A stretch of 64,000 nucleotides of DNA from Escherichia coli. Lineage in GTDB: Bacteria; Pseudomonadota; Gammaproteobacteria; Enterobacterales; Enterobacteriaceae. A program made the translations under genes and the position numbers. Positions 38,317 through 41,186 of the stretch are shown in pieces. Where the stretch lies: NCBI RefSeq assembly GCF_044647545.1, contig NZ_CP172818.1, one strand, 5' to 3'. Position 1 is the first letter of the stretch; every line of letters begins with the position of its first letter. The notes beneath the pieces are model-generated. The model was not told the origin of the DNA. It searched no databases and worked only from the letters and a program-made list of their open reading frames with translations.

Positions 38317-41186
38317 TTGCACGTTGGTTCTGGCGCGAATGGCGCTCGCCGTCGCTATTAATTGTCTGGCTGGCGCTAAGCCTGGCGGTGGCCTGCGTGC
38401 TGGCGCTGGGCAATATCAGCGATCGCATGGAGAAGGGCTTAAGCCAGCAAAGCCGGGAGTTTATGGCGGGCGATCGGGCGTTGCGCAGTTCGCGCGAAGT
38501 GCCGCAAGCGTGGCTGGAGGAAGCGCAAAAGCGCGGCCTGAAAGTCGGCAAGCAGCTGACTTTCGCCACCATGACATTTGCAGGCGACACACCGCAGCTG
38601 GCGAACGTCAAAGCGGTGGATGATATCTACCCGATGTATGGCGATCTGCAAACCAATCCCCCAGGCCTGAAACCGCAGGCGGGCAGCGTATTGCTGGCCC
38701 CACGCCTGATGGCACTGCTTAACCTGAAAACGGGCGACACCATTGACGTGGGCGATGCCACCTTGCGGATTGCCGGAGAAGTGATTCAGGAACCGGATTC
38801 CGGTTTTAACCCCTTCCAGATGGCTCCGCGTCTGATGATGAATCTGGCGGATGTCGATAAAACCGGAGCCGTGCAGCCGGGAAGTCGGGTCACCTGGCGC
38901 TATAAATTCGGCGGCAACGAGAACCAGCTCGACGGCTATGAGAAATGGTTGTTACCCCAGCTTAAACCCGAACAACGCTGGTACGGTCTGGAACAGGACG
39001 AAGGCGCGCTGGGGCGCTCGATGGAACGCTCGCAACAGTTCCTGCTGCTTTCGGCGCTTCTGACCTTGCTGCTGGCAGTGGCAGCGGTGGCGGTGGCGAT
39101 GAATCATTACTGTCGCAGTCGCTACGATCTGATGGCGATCCTCAAAACGCTGGGAGCAGGGCGAGCGCAATTGCGTAAGTTAATCGTCGGTCAGTGGTTG
39201 ATGGTGCTGGCGCTTTCAGCCGTTACCGGTGGTGCGATAGGCCTGTTGTTCGAAAACGTGTTGATGGTGCTGCTCAAGCCCGTTTTGCCTGCTGCACTAC
39301 CGCCAGCCAGCCTCTGGCCGTGGTTGTGGGCGCTGGGCACCATGACGGTCATCTCGCTGCTGGTGGGGCTACGACCGTACCGCTTGTTGCTGGCAACGCA
39401 GCCTTTACGCGTATTACGTAATGATGTGGTCGCGAACGTCTGGCCGCTGAAGTTTTATCTGCCGATTGTCAGTGTGGTGGTTGTGCTGCTGCTCGCCGGA
39501 TTAATGGGTGGCAGCATGCTGCTTTGGGCGGTGCTGGCGGGCGCGGTAGTACTGGCTTTGCTGTGCGGTGTGCTGGGCTGGATGCTGCTGAATGTACTTC
39601 GCCGCATGACGCTGAAATCGCTACCTCTGCGCCTGGCGGTTAGCCGCCTGTTACGTCAGCCGTGGTCAACGTTAAGCCAGCTTTCGGCATTTTCGCTCTC
39701 CTTTATGCTGCTGGCGCTGTTGCTGGTATTGCGTGGCGATCTGCTCGACCGCTGGCAGCAGCAGCTACCTCCAGAAAGCCCGAACTACTTTTTAATTAAC
39801 ATCGCCACAGAACAGGTAGCACCGCTAAAAGCGTTCCTCGCGGAACATCAGATAGTCCCGGAATCGTTTTATCCGGTGGTGCGGGCGCGGCTGACGGCGA
39901 TTAACGATAAGCCGACAGAAGGCAATGAAGATGAGGCGCTCAATCGCGAACTCAATCTTACCTGGCAAAATACGCGGCCCGATCATAATCCGATTGTCGC
40001 CGGTAACTGGCCGCCAAAAGCCGATGAAGTGTCGATGGAAGAGGGGCTGGCGAAACGCTTAAACGTTGCCCTCGGTGATACCGTGACTTTTATGGGCGAT
40101 ACCCAGGAGTTCCGCGCTAAAGTGACCAGCCTGCGCAAAGTGGACTGGGAAAGTCTGCGGCCTAATTTCTATTTTATTTTCCCTGAAGGGGCATTAGACG
40201 GGCAACCGCAGAGCTGGCTTACCAGTTTCCGCTGGGAGAATGGCAACGGCATGTTGACGCAACTCAACCGCCAGTTCCCTACTATTAGCCTGTTAGACAT
40301 TGGCGCGATTTTAAAACAGGTCGGTCAGGTGCTGGAGCAGGTAAGTCGGGCGCTGGAGGTGATGGTGGTGCTGGTCACCGCCTGCGGTATGTTGCTGTTG
40401 CTGGCACAGGTGCAGGTGGGAATGCGTCAGCGTCATCAGGAGCTGGTGGTGTGGCGCACACTCGGTGCGGGGAAAAAACTGCTGCGTACCACGTTGTGGT
40501 GTGAGTTCGCCATGCTTGGGTTTGTTTCTGGCCTGGTAGCCGCAATTGGTGCGGAAACGGCGCTGGCAGTGTTGCAGGCGAAAGTGTTTGATTTTCCGTG
40601 GGAGCCAGACTGGCGATTGTGGATTGTGCTGCCGTGCAGCGGTGCACTGCTGCTGTCGCTTTTCGGCGGCTGGCTGGGTGCGCGATTGGTTAAGGGTAAG
40701 GTGTTCAGTTGCGGGTGTGGAGCGCGCACAGGACGAGAGGGAGAGAGCAAGAGGGCGGGGGCAGCGAAAAAGGGGGGGAACAGGCGAAAAAAGAAACAGG
40801 GGGGGGAGCGGGGCCCCTACTGCGGTCGCCGCGCGCGGCCGGGGCGCCCCTGCGTGCCTCGTCCGCAGGCCGAAAGCGAAACTAAAGCAGATGAGTCTGC
40901 CCATTCCAAGTCACCAACTTGGGCGCGGAAAAAAAAAAAACGCTGCTCTTTTCCCATAGCTGTTGATCGCGGCCCGGACCCCGCGCGGGGACACCATATC
41001 AAAACCGGTAACTCTCAACCATTTCAAGGCATGTTCTCACGATCAACTCGCCGATATTCAGAATACCGCCCATCACTGCGCCTTAACCCATTCCGCCACT
41101 TCCGCCCACTCACCGCGAAAGACAACTTTTTCAGCTTTTTTCTCAAGCTGATAGCGATACATCGGGTCGTAATATTCTTCAAGTAA
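38313..41186 (+). CDS. ybbP: FtsX-like ABC transporter permease YbbP; ORF reads through into a low-complexity tract, native stop expected near 40725 (about 804 aa)
   Basis: First 800 or so codons form a credible polytopic permease beginning [37 protein letters not shown]; after about 40705 the translation becomes basic/G-rich nonsense and overlaps selU, so the last 460 nt are not believed to be genuine coding sequence. Confidence 0.8.
40705..40995. other. Anomalous G/A-run low-complexity tract at the ybbP 3' end (probable sequence/assembly artefact)
   Basis: Runs such as AAAAAGGGGGGG, CAGGGGGGGG, GGAAAAAAAAAAAACG; no codon structure; same character as the 26090..26347 tract. Confidence 0.6.

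Follow-up and report, generated by a model that had tools for sequence, protein, structure and literature searches.

Rhs elements, the RhsD locus of Escherichia coli K-12 among them, are said to have been described by Hill and co-workers. In strain MG1655 this locus occupies the interval between ybbP and selU, where the gene order is ybbP–rhsD–ybbC–ylbH′–ybbD′–ylbI′–ylbG–selU and the two flanking stop codons lie 7,301 bp apart. A preliminary description of the DNA studied here, a stretch of 64,000 nucleotides referred to below as the window, gave the K-12 order as rhsD–ybbC–ylbH–ybbD followed by selU, which agrees with MG1655 as far as it goes but leaves out ylbI′ and ylbG. Jackson et al. 2009 (PMC2935791, Table 3, locus 3, ybbA..ybbB) place the site among 11 variable rhs positions in E. 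coli and report widespread gain and loss of rhs between strains, K-12, HS and ATCC 8739 included. The O157:H7 site holds an RHS core protein, small ORFs and a ylbG pseudogene. The ST131 site holds an Hcp-family type VI effector (Hcp-ET, an Hcp-fused toxin) together with three DUF2931 genes, so that an occupied site need not be an Rhs site. Island-free spacers measure 712 bp (HS), 603–604 bp (ST648 and ST3), 240 bp (1517k), 140 bp (83972) and 58 bp (GN04275), and at least seven different kinds of natural content are found at the site.

A megablast search with positions 40300–41500 of the window against 5,426 complete E. coli genomes gave matches in 5,420, none of them covering 80% or more of the query. 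State frequencies were taken from an even sample of 60 rows of these 5,420 matching genomes: 21 rows (~35%) are island-free, with spans of 914–1,568 bp; 32 (~53%) show a K-12-type right junction with ybbP more than ~1.1 kb away; six (~10%) have the ST131-type junction; and one matches at ybbP only. The 8,930 matched places in the 5,420 records are consistent with ~65% of sites being occupied, and the spacer of ST648/HS type is present in 1,315 of the 5,426 genomes. Between allele types, homology ends ~6 bp past the ybbP stop codon and restarts ~2 bp before that of selU. The entire intergenic content therefore behaves as an exchangeable cassette. A map of the ybbP–selU site is a by-product of this work: the site is a whole-spacer replacement cassette, whose contents include an Rhs or an Hcp-toxin island, a dinQ-like type I toxin gene or REP repeats alone. 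Absence of Rhs at this position is an ordinary, already published lineage polymorphism, and its biological weight is small, rhs presence and absence at ybbA/ybbP–selU having been catalogued in 2009 and about one-third of complete E. coli genomes being island-free.

The window shares this site with the K-12 RhsD locus, and with it the flanks, reading from left to right tesA, ybbA and ybbP on the one side and selU (mnmH), allS, allA, allR and gcl on the other. The gene for the ABC transporter ATP-binding subunit, ybbA, is intact on the plus strand at 37630–38316 (a 228-residue ORF within an 8,402-bp block 100% identical to ST648, where it is annotated ybbA). It is followed on the same strand by ybbP at 38313–40701, whose first 796 codons are intact, with 100.000% identity to ST648 up to 40701, and whose native last eight codons and stop are gone. 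On the minus strand, the tRNA 2-selenouridine synthase gene selU is an intact 364-residue ORF at 41073–42167, with zero mismatches to ST648 mnmH from 41057 on. The first gene of the allantoin regulon after selU, allS, is a 308-residue ORF on the minus strand at 42236–43162, and it comes next after selU in the gene order of ST648, O157, K-12 and ST131 alike, that is, in all E. coli examined. The native 804-residue YbbP would be expected to stop at 40725–40727, where the window reads CGC; the ybbP frame remains open to 41186, giving 957 residues against the native 804. Both FtsX permease domains of YbbP lie in its native part, and a Pfam search of the low-complexity extension found no domain beyond these two.

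The selU stop codon (41073–41075, minus strand) lies 345 bp from the position expected for that of ybbP, in keeping with the ~350 bp given in the preliminary description, against 7,301 bp in K-12 and ~6.1 kb in O157; occupancy of the K-12 or O157 kind is not seen. The 7.3-kb rhsD–ybbC–ylbH′–ybbD′–ylbI′–ylbG content of the K-12 locus is missing from the window, and the sole piece held in common is 36 nt of the ylbG–selU spacer, at window positions 40995–41030. The ST131 island with Hcp-ET and DUF2931 genes occupies the same cassette position, which shows type VI secretion cargo to be exchanged there, but none of its sequence is present in the window. Six-frame scans of the whole 64 kb revealed neither YD-repeat motifs (YxYDxxG, GxxYxYD) nor the PxxxxDPxGL motif of the core/tip boundary. 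The window contains no unexplained ORF of Rhs size, the sole ORF of at least 600 residues at the site being ybbP with its read-through, and neither a large YD-repeat core ORF (~1,400 residues) nor a toxin tip with an immunity gene was found. With the motif and ORF scans of the window empty, the earlier statement that an Rhs element is absent between ybbP and selU is borne out.

The same description took the source to be unlike K-12 at this locus, and we agree: it matches ST648-type genomes with an Rhs-less spacer of 603 bp. The window is collinear throughout with strain ST648 (NZ_CP008697.1), with two substitutions in 64 kb. An 8,402-bp stretch to the left of the anomalous tract described below is 100.000% identical to ST648, and to its right there are zero mismatches from 41057 to 45088; the flanks thus have the lineage-specific identity of the island-free allele of ST648/HS type. 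In the best 30 of the 5,420 matching genomes, several of which are labelled ST648, ybbP and mnmH fall in one place of ~1,460 bp, some 600 bp from each other, with no gene between them. In ST648 itself, 603 bp without Rhs separate the ybbP stop from the mnmH stop. Alignment with HS and ST3 and a terminator scan reveal two REP-type repeats, hairpin terminators and a dinQ-like type I toxin gene in this spacer. The REP-bearing segment recurs within genomes, the median number of places being 30. HS has the dinQ-like gene in intact form (51 residues; NCBIfam toxin_DinQ, 38.4 bits against a cut-off of 30), and a 108-bp deletion truncates it in ST648 and ST3. The absence of Rhs, the ST648-like lineage with its naturally island-free relatives and the variability of the cassette site are all direct observations.

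The interval between the flanks in the window is a different matter. An anomalous tract of 355 bp (40702–41056) replaces 613 native bases (45257–45869 of the ST648 locus L003), which comprise the ybbP 3′ end, two REP units, the dinQ-like remnant and terminators. Identity to the closest genomes is 100.000% through 40701 and resumes cleanly at 41057; positions 41032–41056 can also be aligned to these genomes except for four 1-nt insertions. Compared with the spacers of ST648 and ST3 (603–604 bp) and HS (712 bp), the window has the ST648 flanks and degenerate copies of spacer sequence at 40885–40945 and 41032–41056, the only two short segments recognisable as native (z = 8.6 for the first, and 5.8 for 40995–41056, which includes the second), whereas it lacks the ybbP stop, the REP pair, the dinQ-like remnant and both terminator hairpins, and the 355 nt that stand in place of 613 are T-poor and GC-rich. 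Positions 40702–41031 contain 113 G, 90 C, 85 A and 42 T (12.7% T); local GC reaches 74% within 40750–40899 and AT skew reaches +0.77. The tract holds runs of G8 and A12, and homopolymers of at least 8 nt (at least 9 for A or T) occur in the window just here and at 26108–26346. With 613 native bases replaced by 355 unmatched ones, the true structure of the empty site is unreadable from the window, as the preliminary description had said; to judge from alignment, it can be inferred from the window's relatives.

Segments of the tract were aligned locally to the native spacer and scored against shuffles. The garbled ybbP 3′ end at 40702–40729, native GCGCTGTTCAGGCAGTTTGCGGGGTGA with scattered deletions, scores weakly above shuffles (z = 2.5 for 40702–40730). 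Nothing recognisable was found in 40730–40885 (z = −0.4), which contains a purine- and GC-rich core (40730–40884) with many short GC palindromes (GGGGCCCC, GGGGCGCCCC, GCCGCGCGCGGC); this core has no detectable relative, and its matches elsewhere are at chance level only. A degenerate segment of island-free, ST648-type spacer follows at 40885–40945 (z = 8.6; also blastn E = 0.004), corresponding to L003 45739–45800. Positions 40945–40995 again show nothing recognisable (z = 0.9), and 40995–41056 aligns with native selU-proximal spacer (z = 5.8). Segment-wise alignment was used in place of a longest-common-subsequence test, in which the tract was treated as native spacer with dropped bases: the whole tract gave z ~4.3, while for the core alone the statistic saturates and does not discriminate, at 173 against 168 ± 1.6 for shuffles and up to 176 for control references. 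Since the segment score detects no relationship of the core to the native spacer, a foreign origin of the core is conceivable in principle.

The right-hand part of the tract is of mixed descent. Positions 40990–41030 are of K-12/O157 type, a sequence that natural genomes have only in island-bearing alleles, where it lies between ylbG and selU; 40995–41030 is 97% identical to the K-12/O157 ylbG–selU sequence over 36 nt (E = 8e-11), and K-12-type genomes align by megablast from query position 691 (window position 40990) onward. The adjoining 41032–41056 is ST648-type selU-proximal spacer with four 1-base insertions, at 41043, 41047, 41054 and 41056; in one three-way alignment, those at 41043, 41054 and 41056 match the base of the K-12 allele at that position. 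Among the 60 sampled rows, genomes with the K-12-type junction have a selU at most 94.8% identical to that of the window, and none of the sampled natural genomes has such a junction beside an ST648-like selU. The tract is thus an interleaving, a few bases at a time, of pieces of two mutually exclusive natural alleles, which is unlike a clean recombinant.

The K-12/O157-type stretch, which in the sampled genomes occurs only beside an occupied site, is what could be expected if the source carried an Rhs or other island that an assembly collapse had reduced to junk plus its right-hand end. Assemblers often break Rhs cores, which are repeats present in several copies, and the preliminary description had itself raised the loss of an Rhs element by assembly collapse. 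We consider this highly improbable. The flanks are 100% of ST648 type, the best 30 matching genomes, ST648-type ones among them, are island-free, and the segment 40885–40945 resembles island-free spacer. Sequence from the left end of an island is absent, and the tract has no similarity to an Rhs core, ybbC or ylbG beyond chance words of 10–13 nt. Moreover, the collapse of a repeat makes no new low-complexity sequence and leaves the damage seen at non-repeat sites of the window unexplained.

Several other sources for the tract were tried and rejected. A garbled Rhs core was set aside because nothing in the tract resembles K-12/O157 Rhs, ybbC, ylbH or ylbG beyond those chance words; the shorter natural spacers of 1517k, 83972 and GN04275 (240, 140 and 58 bp) were rejected as templates by alignment; and no recombineering scar (FRT or loxP) is visible on reading the sequence. 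The tract was not found in the 5,426 complete E. coli genomes. A distant blastn search of E. coli genomes matched just the selU-proximal ~60 nt, and the same search of PLSDB plasmids gave chance matches to GC-rich Streptomyces sequence only (E ~0.3–0.9). Scans for two short distinctive patterns from the tract gave zero hits in GTDB genomes (two scans) and JGI metagenomes (one scan), these being exact-match scans that would miss a diverged relative.

A functional role was considered in view of the several GC-rich palindromes and of an inverted repeat in the tract, whose arms at 40825–40845 and 40972–40992 are 81% complementary. Such features might belong to a regulatory element or a non-coding RNA, such as a structured RNA or a REP-like repeat of a new kind. 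However, a search of Rfam with 40500–41300 returned no match even at E ≤ 10, ARAGORN predicted no tRNA or tmRNA gene, and promoter and terminator scans found neither inside the tract. The predicted RNA fold is no more stable than those of shuffled sequences (z = +1.31), 88 of 100 of which fold at least as well, and no homologues were found that would allow a covariation test. Of the readings weighed here, a functional element is the least probable, and we give it almost no credence.

The tract is one of several damaged stretches in the window. At 26096–26345, the ST648 gene for a RelE/ParE-family toxin is decayed position by position; Gs drop first, the sequence then smears into runs of C8–C11 and A9–A27, and perfect identity is back abruptly at 26346. 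Diversity-generating A-mutagenesis of the DGR type was rejected for this region, given the smear into C as well as A and the homopolymers of 27 nt. At 26721, ybaQ has lost its stop together with 19 nt of sequence, and its product lengthens to 123 residues from 113. At 32287–32299, 13 nt of A-rich filler stand in place of a 2.56-kb island of ST648 (a YadA-family adhesin and hypothetical genes) and overwrite the ybbJ stop, giving 161 residues against 152; this junction is absent from the complete genomes, among which the best match over the full length reaches 91.3%. Seven separate G/C deletions of 1–2 nt fall within 25 nt at 19343–19350, again in no complete genome (best match 96.3%), and a 14-nt deletion at 54013 is likewise unmatched in complete genomes. 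The native stops of ybbP, ybaQ and ybbJ are all lost exactly at the borders of damaged stretches.

The stretches at 26096–26345, 26721, 32287–32299 and 19343–19350 resemble the tract in being unique, in lying in strain-variable, non-core DNA and in showing base dropout or homopolymer smearing. The region at 26096–26345 differs from it in that its decay is nearly length-preserving and collinear, whereas the ybbP–selU site is shorter by ~260 bases and has a core that can no longer be recognised. In total, the window departs from ST648 by nine indel or decay events (several were tested, and all of those are unique), three lost stop codons and two substitutions, a combination that, judged from the comparison with ST648, should not be expected of a natural close relative. 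Selection acting on a real genome would, however, likewise leave indels restricted to intergenic DNA.

Could the tract nevertheless be a genuine natural allele, hitherto unsampled? It would then be a 355-bp replacement through which YbbP gains a low-complexity tail of 153 residues and the two convergent genes lose their terminators. In favour of this, the site is an established hot spot, at which at least seven kinds of natural content are found, the ybbP frame is open across the tract, and the tract has no relative, so that its derivation wholly from the native spacer cannot be demonstrated. Against this stand its absence from all other sequences in the collections searched, its lack of functional signal of any kind and an extreme composition, with homopolymer runs of a sort that just one further stretch of the window, likewise damaged, displays. 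The fine-scale interleaving of two mutually exclusive alleles is also unlike the product of clean recombination, and a natural origin requires three lost stop codons in a genome 2 SNPs from its relatives. We regard a natural allele as very unlikely, if the least so of the alternatives; that the tract is real DNA in a living strain of the ST648 lineage, a new replacement allele at the ybbP–selU hot spot, is rated a shade lower still.

Overall, the site in this ST648-like background is naturally Rhs-free, and we think it very probable that the tract is a non-biological corruption of its native spacer, the corruption being deduced from the pattern of damage. The window comes from, or is derived from, an E. 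coli of ST648-like lineage, in which the native site has a spacer of ~603 bp that carries the stop codon of ybbP, a pair of REP repeats, hairpin terminators and the dinQ-like gene in truncated form. The 355-nt occupant would be a corrupted rendering of that spacer, arising as an error or synthetic artefact of sequence production. The process presumably dropped bases, smeared others into homopolymers and blended allele types; it would have kept conserved coding DNA exact while damaging strain-variable, non-core stretches and clipping three stop codons. The tract is read as an artefact because it is absent from all collections searched; because it has no Rfam, tRNA, promoter, terminator or fold signal, whereas the native spacer has terminator hairpins; because it combines degenerate pieces of island-free and island-bearing alleles; and because it is paralleled elsewhere in the window by unique damage and homopolymers, with three stops lost in all.

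Several stretches of the window do not resemble real DNA, and readings of its intergenic regions are to be distrusted pending a check against reads. This includes the extended YbbP, the lack of terminators, the apparent loss of a toxin gene at 26.1–26.3 kb and that of an adhesin island at 32.29 kb. Should the tract prove to be real, the YbbP permease would be longer by 153 low-complexity residues and both convergent genes would be without terminators.

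The clearest sign that the window contains stretches that are not real DNA comes from positions 26096–26345. In ST648 (NZ_CP008697.1), with which the window is collinear, an intact RelE/ParE-family (HigB-like) toxin gene lies here, and the segment in the window is a collinear but progressively decaying version of it. The decay is ordered, with G residues being lost first, followed by the appearance of runs of C8–C11 and A9–A27, and identity to ST648 is abruptly perfect again from position 26346, directly 5′ of ybaQ. Directly 3′ of this higA-like antitoxin gene, at 26721–26722, 19 nt are missing; the loss removes the ybaQ stop codon, giving a product of 123 residues versus 113.

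Between cueR and ybbJ lies a 13-nt A-rich filler, ttaaaagaaaaaa, at 32287–32299, which overwrites the ybbJ stop codon and extends the product to 161 residues versus 152. At this position, ST648 carries a 2.56-kb island encoding a YadA-family adhesin and hypothetical proteins. The filler junction is absent from every complete E. coli genome. Short deletions, all of them intergenic, lie at 8100–8105, 15847, 19343–19350, 25990 and 54013. The 19343 site has seven separate G/C deletions of 1–2 nt each inside 25 nt, and 14 nt are deleted at 54013; neither version occurs in any of the 5426 complete genomes.

Two neighbouring direct repeats of approximately 100 bp, 90% identical, were observed in the ybcF–purK intergenic region (62169–62379). 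ST648 shares them, so they are natural, and they probably constitute a REP/BIME-type array.

The island-free ybbP–selU spacer of the type seen in E. coli HS, present in about one-quarter of complete genomes, encodes a 51-residue dinQ-like type I toxin (NCBIfam toxin_DinQ, 38.4 bits; minus strand, 846–1001 of the HS sequence, L006). A 108-bp deletion has removed the 5′ part of this gene in ST648 and in ST3, another island-free strain, and the ST648 remnant spans approximately 45500–45560 (L003). In ST131 strain 5506, the ybbP–selU site is occupied by a 667-residue Hcp-family type VI effector gene followed by three DUF2931 genes (4926–8928 of L011), so the site swaps varied toxin cargo, Rhs being only one kind.
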